The notes under the pieces: generated by a model
Told to the model about the DNA's origin: nothing
What the model saw: only the letters and a program-made list of their open reading frames with translations
Databases searched by the model: none
Source: Rhynchobatus australiae
Taxonomy: Eukaryota
Length of the DNA stretch: 63,478 nucleotides
Assembly: GCA_034780895.1 (NCBI GenBank)
Contig: JAUZTB010000068.1
Location: 21,974,019 to 22,037,496 of the forward strand
Reading direction: 5' to 3'
Made by a program: the position numbers and the translations under genes
Shown: positions 5,788 through 63,478 of the stretch, in pieces
How positions within the stretch are numbered: position 1 is the stretch's first letter
Layout: each line of letters opens with the position of its first letter

Positions 5788-5934
5788 GTATAAAGTGGAG
5801 AACTGGTGCTGAAGAGCTGAACACTGAAAATTCCATGTTTAAAATCATCTTTTGAAGTCCTCAGTCTGATTAAACCAACTTTAGAAGCACCAAGGAATTC
5901 TGAAGGATAGAACTTAAATATTCCACTTGTAAAA

Positions 5935-6483
5935 ATGAATGGAAATGATTCAACTCCAAATTCCAACTCCAACTCAACTGCAAATTCACTCATTTCTTAC
6001 ACTACAGTCAGACCTGATGAAATAGTTTGTATCCGTATGTTATTGCCTATCGAACACTTCCTAATCCTTACAGAAAGCCAAAAGAAAATTATTGCTGCAT
6101 TGTGTTTGACAGTGGGGCCTTTTACTGTTTTGGAAAACTTCTTCATTTTATGTGTGATACTCTTTACTCCACAGCTTCGAAGTCGACCCTCTTATTTATT
6201 TATTGCCAGCCTTGCAACTGCCGACCTCACGGCAAGTGCTGTATTTGTTTACAGTTTTGTTGGCTTCCATGTTTTTGAGAACAAGGACAATAAGCACATC
6301 TTTCTGTTTAAACTGGGATGTGTCATTGCATCATTCTCAGCTTCAGTGGTCAGTTTGCTGTTCACTGCCATTGACAGGTACATATGCATTCACAGGCCTT
6401 CTGAATACAGGGCAATTATAACAAGGAGGAAAGCAGTGAACTGCATTTTAGTTATGTGGTTAATTGTTATTATTATTGGTTTA
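5935..6483 (+). CDS. cnr2: Cannabinoid receptor, most likely CB2; segment 1 (N-terminus to TM4)
   Basis: Motifs LEN (TM1), LRSRPSYLFIASLATAD (TM2), FHVF, FKLG (K3.28), AIDRY and TM4 Trp. The short N-terminus with two sequons (NDS, NST) and PSYLFI favour CB2 over CB1. Homology stops at IIIGL; the ORF tail KKQKKLKLY is read-through. Confidence 0.9.
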
Positions 6484-6774
6484 AAAAAACAGAAAAAACT
6501 TAAGCTTTATTAATAGATCACATAAATTGAGGCTGGAGGTCATGTTAATATTTTCTAATAATTCAGAATGTTACTTCTCAAGACCGCTGAACAGGACAGA
6601 TACTTGAGTGGCACCTGTCCTGATGATGGAATCAACCTTAATTACTCAGGGAAAATCCAAGCTTTGAGTCTGTGAATGGCCAATAAAATATCAATGTAAG
6701 ATATAACTATGACATAGGGGCAGGTTTTGCATTTTCAAAGCCATCCTTTAAAAGAACAAATTAACTTAAATTAA

Positions 6775-6943
6775 ATTGGTTGTTGCATGTTCTGAGGCAC
6801 AGTGAAAAACTTTGTTTTGCATACCATCCATACAGATCATTTCATCACATTGGTGCATTGAGGTAGTACAAGGGAAATCAATAACTGAATGCAGAATATA
6901 GTGTAACAGTTACAGAGAAAGTGCACTGCAGCCAGACAATAAG
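6775..6943. repeat. Interspersed repeat fragment inside the receptor interruption
   Basis: ctgaggcacagtgaaaaactttgttttgcatac closely matches ctgaggtacagtgaaaaacttgtcttgcatac near 15662-15693. Confidence 0.7.
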
Positions 6944-7045
6944 NNNNNNNNNNNNNNNNNNNNNNNNNNNNNNNNNNNNNNNNNNNNNNNNNNNNNNNNN
7001 NNNNNNNNNNNNNNNNNNNNNNNNNNNNNNNNNNNNNNNNNNNTA

Positions 7046-7545
7046 CTTCCTTTGATGGGATGGAATTGCTGTGAGTCACATAATCACTGTTCCGAGCTAT
7101 TTCCTTTCGTTGATGAAGCCTATTTAATTTGCTGGATAATGCTTATAACTTGTCTGTTAGTTTTAATAATTCATGCCTATATACATATTCTATGGAAGGC
7201 CCATTTTCATTCAGTCTACATGGAGAAACAGAAAGAAGGAAGGAAAGGTCAAGTAAAATTAGGACACAAACGTATGGACATTAAACTTGCCAAAACGCTA
7301 GGCCTAATACTAATCATTTTGATTACATTTTGGTCTCCAGCCTTGGCTCTAATGACATATGATGTATTTGCCAAAGTAAGCAAAGATATCAAAAAGGTGT
7401 TTGCTTTTTGCAGCATGCTATGTTTGCTAAATTCTACCATGAATCCAATTGTTTATGCGCTAAGGAGCAAAGATATGCGCCGTTCCATAGTAAACATATT
7501 GTCTGGGTGCAAGAAGCATAAGTCATCTCTGGAGAGCAGTATGGA
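7046..7545 (+). CDS. cnr2: Cannabinoid receptor CB2, segment 2 (end of TM4 to C-tail)
   Basis: LPLMGWNCC...CSELFP, ILWKAH, RMDIKLAKTLGLIL, KKVFAFCSMLCLLNS, NPIVYALRS. LPLMGWxCC, SELFP, KTLGL and KKxFAF are CB2-type. Confidence 0.92.
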
Positions 7546-7660
7546 NNNNNNNNNNNNNNNNNNNNNNNNNNNNNNNNNNNNNNNNNNNNNNNNNNNNNNN
7601 NNNNNNNNNNNNNNNNNNNNNNNNNNNNNNNNNNNNNNNNNNNNNGGAGAGCAGTATGGA

Positions 7661-7766
7661 GTCTGATGGACAGATCAAAAGCCAAATTATGAATGTTTGT
7701 TCATCAAGTGATAAATATAGCCCTGTCACTTCAGAAAATAGTACCTCACTCACCATGCCTGTGTGA
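7661..7766 (+). CDS. cnr2: Cannabinoid receptor CB2, segment 3 (C-terminus and stop)
   Basis: The 15-mer GGAGAGCAGTATGGA sits on both sides of the gap 7546-7645. Collapsing it gives ...LESSMESDGQIKSQIMNVCSSSDKYSPVTSENSTSLTMPV* (TGA 7764-7766). ESDGQI resembles EADGKI of human CB2. Confidence 0.8.
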
Positions 7767-22859: not shown

Positions 22860-24060
22860 GAGCCGGGCACTGAGGGCTGACCCCAGCCTCTGCGGGCCTC
22901 GGGCAGCAGCCTGTCTCTTTAATAATGTTCCTGGAAATGATCGGGAGGGGAGGTAACTTTCGCGTGAATGACATCCGCCAAGAGCTCGTCTCTTGACGGC
23001 ATATTGAAGAGGATCGTTACTCTCCATTATTTCAATGATTGTAAAGGTCAACCGACCGAGTGGCCTTGGCTGAGGCAGGTGTATTTTGCCCGGGTCACCT
23101 CACGACTCCCCCCTCCTCCCCCCAAACAGGGCGGCGGGTGGCACTACCCACATTGTGACGCAGGCGCCGCGGCTGAAGGCGAGGCTGTTGCGGGGAGTCC
23201 GGCCGGAGACGCCATTGCTGCTTGAGGAGCTGGAGCTGTGAGTGGCTGGGGCAGGGGGAAGCGCCACAGCGACAAGGCGGCCTCACTCCGCTGTCCGACC
23301 GCCTCCCTGCTCCCCGACCTTTGTTTTACACCCCTTCGCGAAGCAATACGTTGGAACTAGATTATCTGTTTTTATTAATCGGGCGGGCGGGCCCCTGGAC
23401 GTTGCCTCCCTCCCGGGCCGGTCGGAGTTGCGGAGCTCTGGGCGTTGGAGGCGAGCTGGTGTCGACGGATCATGGCGTGCGGGGCCACCCTCAAGCGCAG
23501 CGTCGAGTTTGACGCGTTACTCAGCCCTCAGTCGCCCAAGAGGAGGCGGTGCATGCCCCTAACGGGGCCCGGCGCCGGGACACCTTCGCCGCAGAAGTAC
23601 CTGAAAACAGAGGCGGCGGCCTTCGGCGGAGAGAGCTCATCGGCGCACAGACTCACCCCAGGTACGGCGGCGGGGGAAGGGGGGGAAAGTCGGCGCCACA
23701 GAGCGCTGGCACGGCCAGACAATGGCAGTAAAACGTCGGGGGTTTGATACGCCTGGGTGATAGAGGGTGCAGCTTCCTGGGTGATGCACCATCCAGCCTT
23801 GCTTCCCCAACTCCGCTCCCTGGTGCAGAGCTTCCCGCAACCCCGCTTGTGAAACGGCGATTTGTTTTCTGTGTGTAGTTAAATAATGACCGGTAATCTC
23901 AGAAATCGATGCGGTTCATCGTTTTTCACAGCCACCCACTCGGAAATGGCTGCCATTTTTTTTGTTTAGTGAGGGGAGTCGTCTTTGATCGCTGCTGCAC
24001 AAACCTCGGAGGCTTTTCACGAGAATGAAGTCAGTATCTTAACACTGTGCAACTTGCCAG
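22860..24060. promoter_or_regulatory. CpG island / promoter of akirin
   Basis: Sharp rise in GC and CpG density around exon 1. GC boxes (GGGCGG), a CRE-like TGACGCA near 23156 and an inverted YY1-like pair at 23944-23958. Confidence 0.85.
23472..23661 (+). CDS. akirin1: Akirin coding exon 1
   Basis: [30 protein letters not shown]...SPQKYL...HRLTP: invariant akirin start and PKRRRC NLS. Kozak ATCATGG; phase-1 donor CAG|GTACGG. Confidence 0.93.
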
Positions 24061-47230: not shown

Positions 47231-49269
47231 TGACTCAAACTACAAATCTTTTTCACTTCAAGATGAGCAAAAATTAACCAGAAAAGACTTCCTTCAGCCC
47301 AAAATCTAAGTCAAATTAGCCCAATGTCTTGCCTTCCTGTATAAACAGACAAATTGGGGAGGAAAAATGACTGGACTCCTATTAATTTGCTCTTTAATCA
47401 ATACCCTATCATGTCAATTTGTTAATGGCACAAATCATTGAAATGTCCTCTTCAAATACAGCCTTTACTCAAAAGTACCAGGATTCAAGTAAGATGTAAT
47501 AAAAGTGCTTGTAAGTACAATTTGTATTTAAGATAATTATGTAGAAATCTCAGCTTGAAGTAATCCAAGTGAAGTAAAGGTGTGATTTCTAATGGGGGGG
47601 GGGTGTATTAAAATTGAGGAAATGACTAAAGCTGCAGGAAGCCTTAATGTTACTATTAACAGTCCTACCCAATTTAAATCCAGTTGAGATTCGTCCTAGA
47701 AAATTTCTTTCCGGAGGTTTACCGTGCTAATTTGAAATGGTTGGGACCACCAGATAAACTTAATGTTATTTTGCTGGGTCTATTGTGTACAAATTTCATG
47801 AATAAATGTTTTCCCACTTTGTAACACATTGTGGCAGTCTTGAGCTTGGCCAGATATGATACTTTAACTACATAGGGATAATTGGAGACCTGTTACAAAT
47901 GCTAGTTGCTCTGACTTCTCTGTAGTTTATTTGTGCAATTTATTCTCCAGACTAAAGCAATACCAAGATTTTAAAAACTTTTGCCAATGGCCAATATTGT
48001 ACTTCATTTTTCAGTCTACACGCATTGAGGAGATAATGCAATTAATCAGAAGGTACTGGTCTTAATGCCTGTTAAAAAGCTAGCAATGTAAAACGTTGGC
48101 AGATGCATTGCTAAACTGGGACGTTTGTAGATGGGTGTTAATGATCCCGTGGAATAATGAAGGACCATAGTTTCTGTAAATTAATGTTTAGATATAACTA
48201 CATCCCAGATGATACTATTTAAAATTTTATAGTAGTTTTATCTCTTTTCTAGTTGTGAGGTAGGTCATTGAACTGAAACTATTTCTCTCTCCATGCTAAT
48301 TGAGAGTTCCTCCATTTTCTATTTTTGTTTCCGATTTTCAGCATCGGAAGTTTTCCCCCTCCATTACCCCCCCAATACAAACCTGTGTCCTTTTGCTATG
48401 GTGAGGGCCAATCTCTACTGAGAATTTTAAATATCTGTATCAGGATTAATTCACTATTTTGGCTGATGTTAACCTTAAACCAGCCATGGACCTGTATTTG
48501 GTCAGTGCTACAGATCATTATTACAACAGCCTCGATTTATTGTCTATTTGGAACCTGAGTGTGGTCCTGTTTTCCTAACACAGTGCTTGCACCTCCTACA
48601 AAATTAGCCGAAATCTCTTGGAATTTGCTCCCATAACCGCGCGGCAGTTTCGGTCTCTGTTAAACCCACAAGAACCTGACTCCGATCTATTTACTACGAA
48701 ACCGGGTAAATACACAGTGATTTACACGTTTATTTTAATGGAGTTAAATGTATTTGATGCTTTTGAATCTTTAAAATGTTTATTTTTTTAACCAAGGCTC
48801 AACTTGAACAATTTTATGTGGGCAGGTAGTCCTGCTTCCTGGAAAAGTTGGGCAAATATTTCCTTTCAGTTTGAGCAGTAGTCTTTCCCTGAATGTTTGT
48901 CCCGAGTGGATTACTTCAGAGAATTTCGTTTTTAAGAGAGGTGCTATTCATCTGCTCTTCCGATCCTATATTCAAGTCTTCCTGCAGCTTATTCTATTCT
49001 GTTTTGGAGTCCGCCACCTTTTATTACTTATGTAATCTCCAACAGTACTTAAAGCTACTGAAGCATTTAAACACAAATGTTGCTTTTTACACTGTATAAT
49101 CGCCTGTGCCTTTGCTTTTGAAGTGTCTTAGTATGTCAAACTAGAGGAGGGTTGCTCTTTTGAAAACAAAAGCACGGTTAAAAAAGAGGGAAAAAGGATT
49201 GTACAAACAACTTTAAATATTTAGGTCGAATTCATGAAGCCAAACCGGGAGCAGGGTGGAGCTAAACAA

Positions 49270-50680
49270 CGTTGGATGCTGCGAAAAAGAGGAACGAAGC
49301 GTTAGCAACTGCAATGCCAACATTGGCCATCACGCCGAGAGTTTCAGATGGAATGGATTACTAGGAAAACTCATTAATTCTACAACCGTTTGTAACACAC
49401 CCGGCGGTGGGGGTTGGTCTGGTTTGCTGCACCTCCTGACGAGGGACGGTGCCTTTGCCCCAAGGGCAGCATCAGCGGTGCAAAAGGATACAAACAGGTC
49501 GGGTTACCCACGTGCCCAGTTAGTGCGGGAAACAGGAGCACGAGCGTCGGCCACCAGGTGGAGCCGGCCGAGCCGGTGACATTGAGCGGCAGACTGGGGG
49601 CGCGCATGCGCGTCCGTCGCAGCGTGGGCTGGTGGGCGTGAGTGGGGGCGCGCCGGCTGCAGGGTGGGACTGAGCATGCGCTCCGTCTCCTGGCGGGAGG
49701 CGGGCACGCGCGCAGGGTGGGACTGAGCATGCGCGCCGGCTGCGGGCGGGAGGCAGGTACGCGCGCCGGCTGCAGGGTTGGACTGAGCATGCGCGCCCGC
49801 CGGTGGGTGGGGCCGAGCACGAGCGGGGCGGGTGGGCGTTTGAAGCGAGTGGCGGTTGGAGGCGTCGACGATGGAGGTGCAGGGGGAGAAGTGGGGCCGG
49901 AGCTGGAGGATCCGGCGGAGGAAGAGGAACCGAGAGAAGGGTTGCAAGGTCCGCAGCAGGATGAGGCACCAGAGCAGCCGGCGGGAAAAGGAGAGGCACC
50001 GCCGGGGCGGGAGGAAGAGGGAGGCCGCCGAGGGGCCGGCGGGCAGCGAGGAACCGGCGGGAGAGCCGCAGCCCGGGGAGGAGAGGGAGGGGACGGACGA
50101 GCAAGGAGAGGGGGAGCGCCGGGAGCCCGACCCGGAGAGCCTGGAGGGTCAGCGGGGGCTGAAGCAGAGAGAGCCAGGGACCGTCGACCCGCTGGGGCCA
50201 GAGGGTGAGAGGCCCCGAGCCCCGAGCTCAACGGCCCGGGAGGAGCGGTCAGCCGCCGAGGAGAAGGTGGCGGAGGGAGAGCAGCCGAGGAGGAGCCCAG
50301 GAGCGGAGGAGCCCGAGCAGCAGGAGGACCCAGCCCCGGCCGGGCCACCGGGAGCCGAGCTGGAGCACAGCGGGGAGGATGAGGAGAAGGACGAGGACCA
50401 TGTTGCCGCCGAGCTCGGCGGCGTGAAGGACGGGCAAGCGGCGGCAGAGGAGCCGGGGAGTCCGATGGGCCGACCGGGAGAGCGAGGAGAAGAGCTGGGC
50501 GTGTCGGAGGGCCAGCAGGAGCAACGAGGGGCAGAAGGACCGGAGCTGGACGAAGTGGGACGAGAGGCACCGAGTCTGAAGGAGCAAGAAGTGGAGGGGG
50601 GAAGAGAGGAGGTGGAAGTTTCAGAGGGCCAGGAGGGAGCTGGAGACGCACTGAAGGGAGAACAACAACCGGAGATCCCG
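49270..50680. promoter_or_regulatory. CpG island spanning the promoter and body of an unassigned gene
   Basis: Very high GC and CpG content against the AT-rich background. Confidence 0.88.
49601..49794. promoter_or_regulatory. NRF1-like motif array in an imperfect tandem repeat
   Basis: Palindrome CGCGCATGCGCG at 49601-49612. GACTGAGCATGCGC at 49668, 49721 and 49781. GGCGGGAGGC at 49692 and 49745. Confidence 0.7.
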
Positions 50681-50749
50681 GGGGAAATTAAAATACACCA
50701 AGGTGGAGCTGGAAAACTTAACAGCAGGACCCAGTTAAATCAGGACTGA
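49871..50749 (+). CDS. Uncharacterised, probably intronless, Glu/Gly/Pro-rich disordered protein (292 aa) with a basic N-terminal block
   Basis: ATG with +4 G (GACGATGG) ~75 nt after the motif array; sustained GAG-rich codon phase; TGA 50747-50749; AT-rich trailer with AATAAA at 50967. No recognisable domain. It could instead be a first exon using AAG|GTGGAG at 50702. Confidence 0.6.
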   Translation: MEVQGEKWGRSWRIRRRKRNREKGCKVRSRMRHQSSRREKERHRRGGRKREAAEGPAGSEEPAGEPQPGEEREGTDEQGEGERREPDPESLEGQRGLKQREPGTVDPLGPEGERPRAPSSTAREERSAAEEKVAEGEQPRRSPGAEEPEQQEDPAPAGPPGAELEHSGEDEEKDEDHVAAELGGVKDGQAAAEEPGSPMGRPGERGEELGVSEGQQEQRGAEGPELDEVGREAPSLKEQEVEGGREEVEVSEGQEGAGDALKGEQQPEIPGEIKIHQGGAGKLNSRTQLNQD

Positions 50750-50966
50750 GGAATTGTTCAGCAACAAGTGATTCCAAATATAAAGGGGGGGGGTAGATTA
50801 AGATAATATATATTTTCAATGTGTAATTTGATCTTGAATAAGTTTTAATCACAATTAGCACATGTTTTTGAAGAAGTATGTTCTTGTAGTTAGAATTCAT
50901 TTCACTTTTGTAATCGGTCTGATTTTCTACTGTTTGTGGTATTTAATGTGAGTTATTAGATCAATT

Positions 50967-50972
50967 AATAAA
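50967..50972 (+). terminator. Candidate polyadenylation signal of the acidic-protein gene
   Basis: AATAAA ~220 nt after the stop, followed by a GT/T-rich stretch. Confidence 0.5.
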
Positions 50973-52699
50973 ACTCATTTCGATGTTTTACATGCTTTGC
51001 AATAGACTAGTCAACGTTAGTCGTGCTGGAAGTCTGTTAGGGCATTAGCAGTTACCAGTAAAACAACGTGTAGCCTGCAGTTCTATCCGACTGCTAACAG
51101 CAATTTAGGAACATTATTATCCTAATTTCAATAAGCCAAGTCAGAATTTTCTAAAGGATATGATGTACATGGGGGAAATAAGCTTAAGCCTTAGCATGAA
51201 TATGTAGTGCATTACAGGAATTAGAAATTGTCCCTGCATTTTATTGAATTCTAATTCCTTGGAAGGACACCTCTCATTTACATCCTGGAGTATTGATGAT
51301 ACAATAATAAAACTATGTCATAAATACACAGTAGGGTATTAAAACCCTGTGGACCTGCGTGATAACAGAGAACTGGAGACACAAAAGATTGCAGATTGTG
51401 TAATCTGGAGTAAAAGAAAAACAAATGGCTGGAGGATCTCAGTAAATTGGGTATTATCTGTGGAGGCAAAGGGATGGTTGATATTTCAGGTCAAGACCCT
51501 GCAATTTGTTTTTTGACAACAGAGAACAGTGGGTATAGAGATTGTTGTCACTGCCTACTCAGAGGTGCAATAGATGGCCACAAATTTGGCAGCAGTTTAA
51601 AATATAAGTAGGCCAATTGGTCCTCCAAGGCTGCTCCACTATTCAACAGTATCAGATATTGTCTGAAGTTAATCGCCTGAAGAGAGGATAGTGAGATAGA
51701 ATAAGTGGTAGGTATCCACCAAAGGGGAAGGAGTATTGTATAAATTGTAACTTATTGGATACTAGAAAAATCAAGAGAAATGAGGTTATTGCAGGGAAGT
51801 TGCACTGAGGTAAAAGATCAGTCATGATTATGTTGAATGGCAGCACAGGAACAGGCGTACCTCTTTTGCTATTTCTTATGTTCCTATGATTGCAACCATG
51901 GCATCTGTAGTTTTCAGTTTTCCCTTTGGCCTAGGATACATTCTGTTAAGGCCAGATGTTCTATCTTTTTCACTTGGAGCTGTTCCTATATTTTAAATGC
52001 ATCTAAGTGTATTTCATTTTATTCTATCCATTTTTTCTACCATTGTGACATGCACACAGAACTCTATGGAAGTAAATGCAAAGTAATGATTCAATACCTC
52101 AAACATGCTCTCTGCCTTCACAATCTATTTCTTTTAATAGTTCCTAATTAGCCCCACCCTTAAACTGTTTTTACCATTTATGACATTTTGGTTTTATGTT
52201 ACTTATTAATTTACTCTATTAAACTCCCTGAGTCATGCCAAAGTCTGTAGGCTTGACAACACTACAGATTTAACCCAACAATTATAGGCTAATGGTGGTG
52301 GTGGGGGGAATCTTTTATATCATTACTCCTGGACAAAATATGCGGCTTTGCCTGTCTTTCCTCTCCCCCTCTTTGGAATATGTCCAGTCTGCTCTTTGAA
52401 GGCTTTGCATTGCTCATCTTTAACCACAATTCCCAGATTTTTTAAAGTCTTTATGGAACAAGCCATGATTTACTTATAAATCACATTCCTTCCCATGCCT
52501 GTAAATGAAAGAACATCACACTGATGTCTAAAACTCCTGAGGTCTAATATTCCCTGAGATCTAGTTTGTTAAGGCAATAAAACTTTTTTTGCATAAATCA
52601 CCAAGCCAAGGGTGGTAATTATTAATTTTTGTGTCTACATTATCAAAAAATTCCAAGTTACAATATTTAGTGATGATTGATTTGGCATATACACATAAT

Positions 52700-56180: not shown

Positions 56181-57480
56181 TAGAGTTTTTTTAATTCTGC
56201 ACGTCCCAAAACACTTTACAACTAATGAAGAATTTTGAAAATACAGTTACAGTTATTTTCATTGGAAAATACATTTTAAAAGAGAACTTTTTAAATAGCA
56301 TTAACATGATTAATGTGATTCTAAAAATCCATCACCGTAAATTGCCATGTGAGCAAGATGGCTCACTTTGCCTCTCGATGCCTTAACGACTTTATCAAAC
56401 ACTTTTTGCATGCAGCCATTTCCTTTAACAAGTTTCTATCCGACCAAACGGTCTGGCATTTGCCCTGAAAATGGCCTGAAGTTCACAACTAATGGTGACA
56501 GCATCACATGGTATGGCTTTAAAAGATTAAATAGTTTGGTGGCTATTGTCTTCATGTTTTGAATTTTTTTTCCCCATGTTTTACGAGAGCTTCTTCCCCA
56601 GCAGCACAGTGGATATTGCTCGCAGACAAAAGATAATTGACAGCTAGTTCAGCCTCTGCAGATTCTTCCGGCTTCCGATGCACTAATCAGCACAGTCCCG
56701 AGAGTCTGGAAAATTGGTCAAAACTTTCACGGGCAAAAGCGAGGTTTTGGAAGATTACGGAGAATCTGTAAAACGTACGGACTGGTAGACGTGGGCTTCG
56801 GAATCACAGCACCAGCTCGTTTAAAAGCATCTGATATACAGCGAGCGACATTGCACGAAAAGCAGCTGATCCAGGTAAGCAAATTCTTCTTCCTCCTCCG
56901 GGGTTGTTGAACTTGTAAGTATCGAGCGAGAATATTTTATGGGTCGTGATATCCTTGTGTTCAGTTGAAATATTCGCTTCTAAGCTACAGATCGGAATCA
57001 ACAGTTGTGAGATGATTTAACCGTTCTTGCTCTTTCAATTAATTGATCTGGCCGGCAGTTTTCCTTAAATTGTCATCATGGTGAAGCCTTCAATGTTGGT
57101 GGCAGTTACTGTGTTCACCCAGGAAATGCCGTGAGAGGGAGAGATATTCGAGTACCGCATCAGACTAAACAGGGTTGCTTTCTTCTTTCAGTGGCGCCTG
57201 GATAGACTCGAATGCACGATAACATGTTTGTAAATTAAAAGCTGCAGTTCTCTACCTAAAATTTAAGTGGTTATATTTTATTCAAATATAGTTTTGCAAA
57301 AGCCAATTTCACTGAACCCGACCAGTGTGAACGTGGAACAGGTTATGAAATATTTACATTTCGGAAGTTTGGGATTATCAGGAAATAGGTTGACATTTCC
57401 ATTTTTTCCTCTCTGACCAATGTTACCCCCACTCTCAGATTATTCTCTCTTTGAAGGCTGCTGATCACTCAATCGCCCGT

Positions 57481-60359: not shown

Positions 60360-60703
60360 CGTTCCCATTGAGTTTACTGTGTTCAGTTCCGGTTGCCACA
60401 TTATAGGAAGGATGTGGAAGCGTTGGCGAGGGTGCAGAGGAGATTTACCAGGATGCTGCCTGGATTAGAGCATATGGAATATGAGGAGAGGCTTAAGGTG
60501 CTAGGGCTTTACTCACTGGAGAGGAGGAGGATGAGGGGGGACATGACAGAGGTGTATAAAATATTGAGAGGAATAGATAGAGTAGAAAGCCAGCGCCTCT
60601 TTCCCAGGGCACCAATGCTCAAGACAAGAGGGCACGGCTTTAAAATAATGGGGGGGGGGGAGTTCAGGGGAGATGTCAGAGGGAGGTTTTTCACCCAGAG
60701 GGT
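60360..60703 (+). mobile_element. Relatively young CR1-like LINE ORF2 C-terminus
   Basis: Uninterrupted PHYRKDVEALARVQRRFTRMLPGL...LGLYSLERRRMRGDMTEVYKI...RGHGFKI...FFTQR, up to a 100-N gap. Confidence 0.92.
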
Positions 60704-63478
60704 NNNNNNNNNNNNNNNNNNNNNNNNNNNNNNNNNNNNNNNNNNNNNNNNNNNNNNNNNNNNNNNNNNNNNNNNNNNNNNNNNNNNNNNNNNNNNNNNN
60801 NNNCCTGGACTTTAATAGGGAAAGGTTAAGGAGAAGCATAAGGCTCTTCAAAATCAGTGCTTTCAAGTCATGGGTCTTATCTCCATGCCACCAAATGTCT
60901 GCCCACTTGATAGAAGCAGAAGCATGTTTGGTGGAGGGCACCATCCAGCACCAAAGGACTGGTTGCCAACATCAAGATTCTTGCATTTTAAGGTATTTGT
61001 TGTATTTCAGCGTGAGACTGGTTTGTAAGTCGCTTGAGATCATGTGAGTTCAAGTCAGTTCTGTCGACAGTGCCTGCAAACAGCAGAGATTGTGGAGAAG
61101 GGAGGGGTCACTACCAGCAATTTCAGATTTCCTTATTAAATTATGCATTTGCTGAAACAGTCACCGTTAGTTTCACGGTGCAATAACAATTAAAGGAAAA
61201 GCTGAGGGAATGGGGTTTGGGAGGAAATTTGTAAGAGGAAAATTGGGAAGAAGCCTTAAATAGTCCATTTTTACTCTTCCACAAGGAAAATAAGAAGATT
61301 TCCTTGCATAAGTCCCTTTTGGCTTTGGCTGCGAGTCCTGCTATTGTCAGCCTGTGGGGAGAGAGAGCCTCAATGGCTTCCCTACTGAGGCCACAGTTAA
61401 CATTGCAGAGGGACTTAATGATATGATCTGAAAATTAAAAGATGGACCTCTTTACCTTCTAGTTTTACACCAGTCCTGAGGAGGTTACAGTGGAAAGCAA
61501 TGGGATCGGTGCAGGATGATGTTCGCCAAGTCCCCTGCGTGGTGGTGTCTGAAAATCAGCATGATTTCTGCTGGGTGGCTGGGTTAAGATTAACTTATTG
61601 AAAGTGAAATTGCAGATTTTGCAACAATGATAATAGCAAAAGGATTGGCATTACCAAATCCAGAAATGCGCCCTATCCCCAATTATTGAGCTTGCTCCAT
61701 AGTGGCTAAAAAAATGTCCTGAGTTTAAGAATTTGGTGCCCTCTATACCTTTTCTACTAACCTTATCATTATTAATGTTAGAGTCATTACAATCCATCAC
61801 TATTACTGTCCCAATGCCTTTGCAGATGAATAATTCGCCTACAAACATGCAGTTTCTGAATCTTCACTGATGACTTCTCCTAATGCTTGAAGCATCTAAA
61901 ATGGAAGGAGGAATAAGGGTGTTTTCAGATCTATGTGACTAAAATACTCAGGCAGGCAGAGTTCCCTTTACATGGTGTGGAAAATATATGACTATATGGG
62001 AGGCGATTCTGAAAATTTCTTTGCTGTCTCAATCTTATCCAGAATCATCGACTTAATGCTTACCTCCCTGATAGTGGAGGTGAACAATGAGAAGAATTGA
62101 AAGAAATTATGGGGTTAGTAAAATAAAAAGGGATAGTGGTACAATTCTTCCATGTCCAATTAGCATCTGGGTTCTCCATCAACTTGGATGCCTTTACAAC
62201 AACTATATTATGTAAGGGTTTAAGGATGAGTTTCTTTTTGAAGAGGTGATGACGTAAGATTTGAAAACAAGAGAGACTATATCAGAGGCGAGAGCATTGT
62301 TAACAATATCAGCTAACATGGGAGCTGGAATAGAAGATGGATGGTCAGTAATTTAGTGGGATTAAAGTGGTGTGCGGTTTCTAGTTAAAATGAGTTCAGA
62401 GAGGGCATGAAGAGTGAACAAAGAGAAATGAGAAGAGGGTGCACATTGAGGATCAGGTCAGCAGGAATATTAGAGGAAGTTTGGCTTAATGGGCCATGCG
62501 AAAGAGGGAAGTGACATAGGCAGTTGATCAGCTAGAGTCATTTTCAGTAACAGTGAAGTCCATGAACTTATCAGACCTACACTGCCTATCTCAGTCAACA
62601 ACAGTTCTAAAGACTAGGAATCATTTCCGTAGCCCTGCTCTGGAGCTTTTCCAAGGCCGTTAGGACACAGATGAGGCAAAAAGAATGACTGTGGCACTGC
62701 ACAATGTGCAAAACACTGAAAGCTATTGTTGACTCACTTGGTGTAATCATCCTTGGCAACAACTTCCTGTTCAGCATGGTGAGTCCTCTAATTGTTTGCT
62801 TTGATATTATGACTGAGATCACAGTTTTGGATAAATAGTGCTGGTACTGCTTAGTATAGGTACAGTGGATTCCCACTTCAAAATTATATTTTTGCTTTTC
62901 AGTAAAGATAGGGATTTAAATTAAAAGGTAAGTTTAAATGCACAGCATGTTTCATTTAAATTATTTTCTTTCCTCTATGTAATTTGTGAATGTGCCTTAG
63001 ACTGTAATTTATTTGCTCAGGCACAAGAGCGCCTTCATTTAATGGAAATTTGATTCCCATCTCTATGGCAATTGTTTTGTATCTCAGAAACCTAGGGCCA
63101 AACACAATTTTTTTCTGTGACACAAATTAATTGTTACTGTAATTACCTTGGTGACTATTAAAACATTTAGTTAGTTGTGCCATTAAATATTTTCCCAGGG
63201 AATCTCAGCAGTACAAGATCTGACTGAGATTTGGGTAAATGAAAAGTCATAGGAAGTAAGGAAGAACAACAAAGCCATTACCTGTAATGTGGAAGGTCTT
63301 TGACGCACACACATTGTCCTCAGAGCCAAAGAAATATAAGGGAATGTCGGAGTCAGAGAGGATTGAATACACTGCAGATACAGTGACAAGCTGTAATTTT
63401 GCTAAATTAAGGAGTCACTAAAAAAATTGGAAACAAATTGCAGATGCTGGAAATCTGAAACAAAAAACAGAAAGCACC

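Follow-up and report, generated by a model that had tools for sequence, protein, structure and literature searches.

How did a predicted protein that is acidic along most of its length come to begin with a stretch so rich in arginine and lysine that the same DNA, read one base earlier, restores the acidic composition? This question is raised by a 63,478-nucleotide stretch of the Rhynchobatus australiae genome (the window), in which a sequence-only reading had picked out a charge-inverting block of 44 codons and had offered three explanations: a pair of compensating frameshifts that created a protamine- or NLS-like domain, translation of two frames from the same DNA, or two homopolymer errors in the assembly. 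The features concerned are the following.

49871-50749, + strand: orphan open reading frame (ORF) of 292 codons, no intron needed, with a basic head (aa 1-50, net charge +18) and an acidic tail (aa 51-292, net charge −42)
49871-49873, + strand: present start codon ATG, in strong context (A at −3, G at +4)
49889-50020, + strand: basic block, aa 7-50 of 292, with 17 Arg and 6 Lys, no Pro, Ala or Thr, and RRRKR at aa 15-19
50021-50746, + strand: acidic low-complexity tail (E56 G39 P25 A23 Q18 of 242 residues), likely disordered as judged from its composition
50967-50972, + strand: AATAAA, a candidate polyadenylation signal on sequence grounds, 220 bases past the ORF stop

Both translations of the block, and their counts, were reproduced. 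The main frame encodes 23 Arg or Lys among 44 residues, with 3 Asp or Glu; one base earlier the same DNA encodes 16 Asp or Glu among 44, with 3 Arg or Lys. The positions assigned to the G5 run (49882-49886), the GGG run (50019-50021), two upstream ATGs (49729 and 49789) and the −1-frame stop (50206-50208) were correct, and the remark that the acidic reading resembles the rest of the protein was borne out, its codons fitting a codon model of the tail as well as the tail itself does (−3.23 versus −3.24 per codon). At its three codon positions the block has the same base composition as the tail displaced by one nucleotide. Under the tail-trained codon model the acidic frame is ahead by 44 log units over 49889-50018, with the main frame ahead afterwards, and the ORF has strong three-base periodicity.

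The inversion of charge is largely expected from the genetic code and needs no special cause, because Glu, Pro and Ala codons that end in G read as Arg or Lys in the +1 frame. Eighteen of the 23 basic residues of the block correspond to Glu or Pro codons read in this way, while the +1 reading of the acidic tail yields a median of 14 and a maximum of 18 Arg plus Lys per 44 codons (199 windows). Shuffling of the basic-frame codons gave 13.1 Asp plus Glu in the −1 frame as compared with the 16 observed (P = 0.066). Compared with the tail codon pool read in +1, the block has more Arg plus Lys (23 versus a mean of 15.1, P = 0.008), and it has C at the acidic third position in 0 of 44 codons, versus 47 of 242 in the tail (Fisher P = 0.0003, a value overstated by the spread of 2-15 among tail windows). 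The head uses only AGC for Ser, and contains Trp, Cys and Met, which the tail nearly lacks.

Protamines are short, wholly Arg-rich sperm proteins. The term 'protamine-like' is therefore wrong for the whole product, which has 292 aa, a net charge of −24 and no Pfam family at E ≤ 0.1. The term 'NLS-like' is plausible, RRRKR at aa 15-19 being a predicted nuclear or nucleolar signal.

The ORF is enclosed by a CpG island and is single-copy in its own genome (a 2.2-Gb assembly of 81,522 contigs), as judged by DNA and protein searches, which found no paralog of either frame of the block. No homolog of the product was found in a protein database that included shark and ray proteomes (E ≤ 1e-5), no match to tail residues 150-292 alone in that database at E ≤ 10, none among 1.84 billion representatives of all lengths at E ≤ 0.001, and none in atlas or metagenome searches; low complexity may mask diverged orthologs. 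On the + strand the gene order is a 7tm_1 receptor, the first exon of akirin, the orphan ORF, rhbdl2, a connexin and a Rag GTPase. The ORF apparently represents an unannotated gene between akirin and rhbdl2.

Several observations concern these neighbours. The receptor ORF (5911-7666, + strand; Pfam E = 1e-21), which we take to be cannabinoid receptor 2-like, is broken by N gaps. The first coding exon that we presume from its translation to be akirin (23473-23661, + strand) lies within a separate CpG island, and its leader just 5′ of the ATG (∼23438-23459) agrees at 19 of 21 aligned positions with that of the orphan ORF (49832-49852; shuffle P = 0.024, post hoc), a likeness that could be chance or the remnant of a duplicated akirin 5′ end. 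The neighbouring rhbdl2 exon has ray and shark proteins as its best matches (76–87%), and a rhomboid family search did not detect this rhbdl2. A candidate first exon for rhbdl2 (56618-56875, + strand) ends in a GTAAGC donor and shows weak tblastn likeness, spread over two frames and interrupted by stops, to an N-terminal extension found in one shark RHBDL2 isoform (E = 0.007 and 0.047); it is probably untranslated here. Fusion of the orphan ORF to rhbdl2 was considered and is unsupported, as rhbdl2 has this candidate first exon of its own (∼56620-56875) and the longest of 28 RHBDL2 matches does not exceed 334 aa. The downstream neighbours are rhbdl2 (L003:5751-5954), a connexin (L006:7496-9109) with its ORF split in two at L006:7933/7946, and the first exon of a Rag GTPase (L008:7132-7560), the latter two presumed from their translations to be gja9-like and Rag, respectively. 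Farther upstream on this contig, ∼320 kb from the window, there is an Ndufs5 match. Translations also suggested to us a degraded LTR-retrotransposon-like pol region (L009:1950-5887) and LINE-like fragments (window 60372-60704). On the − strand a Pro-rich frame of 435 codons (49380-50687) runs free of stops over the island; it has no Pfam match and is probably the mirror of the G/A-rich sense ORF.

To see how the locus varies, we compared contigs from sequencing runs rather than raw reads (depth 4-9). Twelve runs contain part of the stretch; eight were compared, and six cover the block. These represent five organisms: A (run X1), B (X2 and X3), C (X5), D (X6) and E (X7), with B, C, D and E showing roughly 96%, 92%, 90% and 91% likeness. 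X1 may be the assembly's own source, the X2 contig begins 18 letters before G5, X2 and X5 come from one study, and X2, X5 and X7 are small contig sets; X4 and X8 do not cover the block. No run with the stretch is listed as RNA, X7 being a conjectural case. Within the 6.1-kb stretch compared, the X2 and X5 contigs cover only 49864-50781 and 49817-50790, respectively, apart from repeats. This would suit a one-exon transcript; as the run type is unrecorded and gaps in coverage carry no proof, we give it no weight, and by the same token the lack of joints in the contigs is compatible with splicing. X4, a second run of organism A (depth 2.7), has a 2-base insertion and two other letter changes 3′ of the ORF (51007 and 50843-51195), a possible polymorphism.

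The proposal of two homopolymer errors draws on the fragmentation of the assembly (81,522 contigs) and on the fact that both sites are G runs, and it is refuted by this comparison. X1 matches 49051-51485 with no differences and no gaps, and none of the six covering runs, from all five organisms, has a 1-base indel at either G run. We consider the chance of an assembly artefact negligible.

Inside the ORF, each of the four indels found in the relatives has a length divisible by three (+6 in the block and +18 in B; −30 and −12 in C), versus none of the three length changes upstream (+52 in B, +65 in D, +22 in E; the D value from piece coordinates; Fisher P = 0.029). A 6-base deletion at 50097 was left out of this count, as the piece that showed it was off-target and only 31 letters long. 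Triplet indels are also favoured by codon-periodic repeats. Because 1-base indels are absent and ORF indels come in threes, we conclude that the arrangement with a basic head predates the five species and that the main frame has been kept.

What, then, marks the 5′ edge of the block? Two features are at issue.

49882-49886, + strand: G5 run, real, found only in organisms A and B
49891-49893, + strand: GTG in the acidic frame of A and B, ATG in C, D and E; putative old start

Within the run, the G that A and B have at 49883 is replaced by C in organism C and by A in organisms D and E. At 49891, organisms C, D and E carry A in place of G, which creates an acidic-frame ATG with G at both −3 and +4 and is silent (Lys) in the main frame. 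When a phased codon model was set against unphased background, the acidic-frame signal was flat over 49840-49894 and then rose by 14 log units up to 50017; a maximum-segment change-point was uninformative, extending into non-coding DNA. The acidic codon phase begins at ∼49888-49897, at the codon that is ATG in three of the five species. Its presence in those three species makes this ATG a candidate for the ancestral state, subject to the position of the root of the five. The first six codons after ATG 49871 prefer the main frame with the letters of organism A (log-likelihood −18.2 versus −22.0) and neither frame with those of D and E (−20.8 versus −20.6), six codons carrying little phase information. 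Among the listed differences, none in B, C, D or E falls at 49871-49873, and the present start would be a recruited, formerly out-of-frame ATG.

The 3′ edge is of another kind.

50018-50022, + strand: putative net +1 (3n+1) frameshift site, marked by a switch of codon phase, older than the split of the five species

Main-frame phase returns at 50018-50021 in the codon model. Repeat pairs that span 50020 are spaced by 58, 124, 355, 457 and 643 bases, all 3n+1 (all five spanning families: D2, D4, D5, D6 and D8), and 33 of 42 shared 8-mers are at offset 1, an offset also common inside the tail (25 of 69). The −1 peptide shares 19 3-mers with the tail as compared with 11.1 in codon shuffles (P = 0.008) and aligns to it with a score above shuffles (P = 0.04). 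Shuffle tests of 4-mers (P = 0.28), DNA 10-mers (P = 0.11) and codon likelihood (P = 0.060) were not significant; among the five measures of likeness to the tail (D+E content, 3-mers, 4-mers, 10-mers and alignment), two were significant. No relative with an unshifted state was found among the five species or in the database searches, and we infer the shift from codon phase alone. Elsewhere in the tail, 50117-50240 shows a weak frame preference and repeat D12 is spaced by 187 bases (3n+1); this is possibly a second, older out-of-frame patch.

The claim of two compensating frameshifts is thus upheld in one half and not in the other: there is a single frame switch at ∼50018-50022 and the block has acidic-frame codon phase, but a first indel at G5 is not supported, since the run is missing from C, D and E. 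The 5′ edge needs no indel because an acidic-frame ATG stands at 49891 in those organisms, and for this reason the block is probably not a compensatory frameshift pair. In such pairs the original N-terminus stays in the original frame before the first indel; no such segment was recognised here, by a weak test comprising six codons.

Translation of both frames had been proposed to start at ATG 49729 or 49789, and bears on two further features.

49602-49794, no strand assigned: four NRF1-like motifs, likely promoter, one perfect GCGCATGCGC at 49602 and three one-mismatch copies, within 53/30-base repeats (family D1) of the CpG island (CpG observed/expected ratio 1.07); binding predicted
49888-50208, + strand: alternative (−1) frame, acidic as far as 50020 and Gly/Arg-rich from there to its TGA stop; its length varies among species

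All four GCATGCGC/GCGCATGC matches of the 63-kb window fall in 49602-49794, and each motif has one of the upstream ATGs (49606, 49676, 49729 and 49789) as its core. One report gives GCGCATGCGC as the NRF1 consensus and describes a one-mismatch form as still binding in vitro (PMC10810270). Length changes in B (+52), D (+65) and E (+22 bases) alter the frame in which ATG 49789 stands to the block, and the E contig has other letters at the position of this ATG. New stops interrupt the −1 frame at 50047 (D) and at 50128 (D and E). We find no support for dual coding from these upstream ATGs. The second frame as a whole has no conserved start, with that at 49789 varying in frame and that at 49891 being GTG in A and B, and its length is not kept; within the block its second codon positions are depleted of changes (P = 0.017) and its synonymous excess is not significant (P = 0.23).

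Ribosomal frameshifting could in principle join the two frames. Known shift motifs include U-containing types, and in the +1 shift of the antizyme type the motif coincides with a stop or slowly read codon and is helped by a conserved stimulator on its 3′ side. A U-containing motif is impossible in 49963-50141, which has no T, and no unusual structure was found (fold z = 0.17). No substitution is listed in 49996-50032; the probability of a 37-base gap of this kind is 0.40 anywhere and 0.053 at that place. A frameshift element within these 37 invariant bases was rejected on the grounds that the gap is not rare and the fold ordinary, and the same three observations give no sign of a programmed +1 shift of the antizyme type.

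Frame-specific constraint had been suggested as a check between the readings, and it gave a divided answer. The tests drew on 14 distinct substitutions listed in the block and, for new stops, on 54 listed substitutions, both counts being lower bounds, and the P values, from many tests, are uncorrected. Main-frame charge changed by 3 units in the block where 7.1 were expected (P = 0.043; 14 listed substitutions) and by 5 in the tail where 10.2 were expected (P = 0.026), whereas the acidic frame of the block changed by 7 versus 7.6 expected (P = 0.50) and includes three E/K swaps, all silent in the main frame. The 54 listed substitutions create no new stop in the main frame (∼2.1 expected) and two in the −1 frame. 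By codon position the 14 block substitutions fall 5/1/8 in the acidic frame and 1/8/5 in the main frame, a pattern closer to that of an acidic frame under constraint; second-position changes in the acidic frame are depleted (1 versus 4.7 expected, P = 0.017). Low BLOSUM loss was seen in both (acidic P = 0.020, main P = 0.028). Synonymous excess was significant neither in the two frames of the block (5 versus 2.9 and 7 versus 5.2; P = 0.13 and 0.23) nor in the tail (P = 0.29-0.61). These marginal values tilt towards retention of charge in the basic frame, with some use of the acidic frame possible.

In the reading that we favour, to which we give about an even chance, the block forms the first part of a single-copy ORF whose frame has been retained in five species; it was likely turned basic through one old frameshift near 50020, which a switch of start codon likely rescued. 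The gene would first have started at ATG 49891, still present in C, D and E, and would have been acidic throughout. A net +1 insertion near 50018-50022 would then have cut this start off from the tail, and ATG 49871, 20 bases upstream and now in frame with the tail, would have taken over, giving a new head of 7 codons of old leader and 43 shifted codons. Later the old ATG would have been lost in A and B, where it now reads GTG, and stops would have accumulated in the old frame. The order of these events is our reconstruction from the codon phase and the sequences of the five organisms.

It is also conceivable, though unlikely, that no frameshift ever took place, the block being simply a stretch rich in Arg and Lys, or else tail DNA copied out of frame to the front of the gene, and the acidic −1 reading a by-product of AGG, AAG and CGG codons preceded by G or C. 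The recovery of 13.1 of 16 acidic residues by shuffled codons, the codon-likelihood excess of P = 0.060, the absence of an indel from five species and the conservation of charge in the main frame all suit such an origin; it leaves unaccounted for the excess likeness to the tail in 3-mers and alignment, a head that lacks Pro, Ala and Thr and differs from the tail in its Ser codons, Trp, Cys and Met, and a good-context ATG at the very onset of acidic phase in three species. Two compensating frameshifts, in which 49871 would be the old start and the block would lie between changes of −1 near 49882-49888 and of +1 near 50020, appear distinctly unlikely to us. The 3′ switch is clear, and the first six codons of organism A favour the main frame, but that preference disappears with the D and E letters, those codons hold almost no phase information, G5 is absent from C, D and E, and more steps are needed than one indel and a start switch. 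Pairs of this kind are known in vertebrates, at most 99 bases apart and clustered near gene ends (PMC8935012).

That both frames are used today is quite improbable. Leaky scanning to 49891 (ATG, or GTG in A and B) would yield a short peptide of acidic composition; alternatively, ribosomes shifting by +1 near 50020 would join an acidic head to the tail. The 5/1/8 pattern would fit, as would the 7 of 14 acidic-frame substitutions that are silent and the 2 more that are D/E swaps, the persistence of acidic phase after ∼10% divergence and the stretch without listed substitutions; the loss of ATG 49891 in A and B, the varying length of the unshifted product, the three E/K swaps silent in the main frame and the unremarkable T-free site speak against it. 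A related possibility, speculative and very improbable, is a natural charge switch, in which starts 20 bases apart and a +1 shift at a purine-only site near 50020 would give the same disordered protein an acidic or an Arg-rich head, sorted between compartments; it would explain the hints of constraint in both frames of the block. Finally, the locus could be a CpG island, transcribed or not, whose long G/A-rich frame yields no working protein. G/A-rich, T-poor DNA seldom makes stops, and neither a homolog, family or atlas match nor a synonymous excess in the tail was found. Three-base periodicity, triplet indels inside the ORF and not upstream, the lack of new main-frame stops, conserved charge, the strong start context and a polyadenylation signal 220 bases past the stop leave this last alternative a slight chance.

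If the ORF is translated, the product is predicted to be a disordered polyampholyte with a head of +18 and a tail of −42. By analogy with Arg-rich frameshift tails, the Arg-rich head would target the nucleus or nucleolus and bind nucleic acid or its own acidic tail, and the acidic tail would bind basic proteins such as histones.

In the literature searched, mostly outside subscription journals, we found no description of the orphan gene or of this case. Among systems that resemble it in part, GNAS XLαs/ALEX and INK4a/ARF are dual-coding loci in which a GC-rich exon carries two long open frames with disordered products. The GC-rich exon, the two long frames and, as a prediction, the disorder recur here, with the difference that the second frame keeps neither its start nor its length. 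Biba et al. (PMC8935012) describe pairs of compensatory frameshifting mutations, such as that in RAB36, with six high-confidence cases of 7-99 bases; the supplements list 624 candidate genes. Like these, the block would be a segment fixed out of frame close to one end of a gene that is young and weakly conserved. Such pairs need two indels relative to outgroups, whereas the five species show none here and the segment, at 132 bases, exceeds the 7-99 range.

In its build, the ORF recalls CCER1, a germline Glu-rich disordered protein encoded by a single exon in a CpG island and Glu-rich in its C-terminal part (PMC10713660). Single exon, island and Glu-rich C-terminal part are shared, and with no sequence match the analogy is one of build only. 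GAGE/PAGE proteins likewise have a basic head and an acidic tail; this too is an analogy of build, as the orphan product has no Pfam match. In tunicates a frameshift converted histone H1 to a protamine-like protein. A fixed frameshift that makes an Arg-rich segment would be common to both; there, Lys became Arg in a basic chromatin protein, whereas here acid would have become basic and the whole protein stays acidic (−24).

The closest mechanistic parallel in charge is offered by HMGB1-type frameshifts, which turn an acidic disordered tail Arg-rich (Mensah et al., PMC9931588; also the review PMC13251019). In the former study, Arg-rich frameshift tails entered the nucleolus in 12 of 13 tested cases, with an Arg cut-off of 15%. 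The flip from D/E-rich to R/K-rich is driven by the code in both systems, and the block, at 39% Arg (17 of 44), lies above that cut-off, its replacement of an acidic reading being our reconstruction. The HMGB1-type alleles are C-terminal disease alleles that lose the acidic tail and gain a new stop, whereas the segment described here is N-terminal (aa 7-50), its tail is kept and it occurs in five species, with nucleolar targeting only predicted. The weight of the comparison is limited, as the charge flip is itself expected from the genetic code and the gene is known here from sequence only. If our reading is true, one indel together with a neighbouring out-of-frame ATG provides a cheap route to a new targeting domain, and the persistence of the old start codon in three species makes the states before and after directly comparable. 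Acidic-to-arginine frameshifts in disordered regions, known from alleles in human disease that send proteins wrongly to the nucleolus (PMC9931588), would then have in this locus a fixed, multi-species counterpart, tolerated and apparently kept for its charge.
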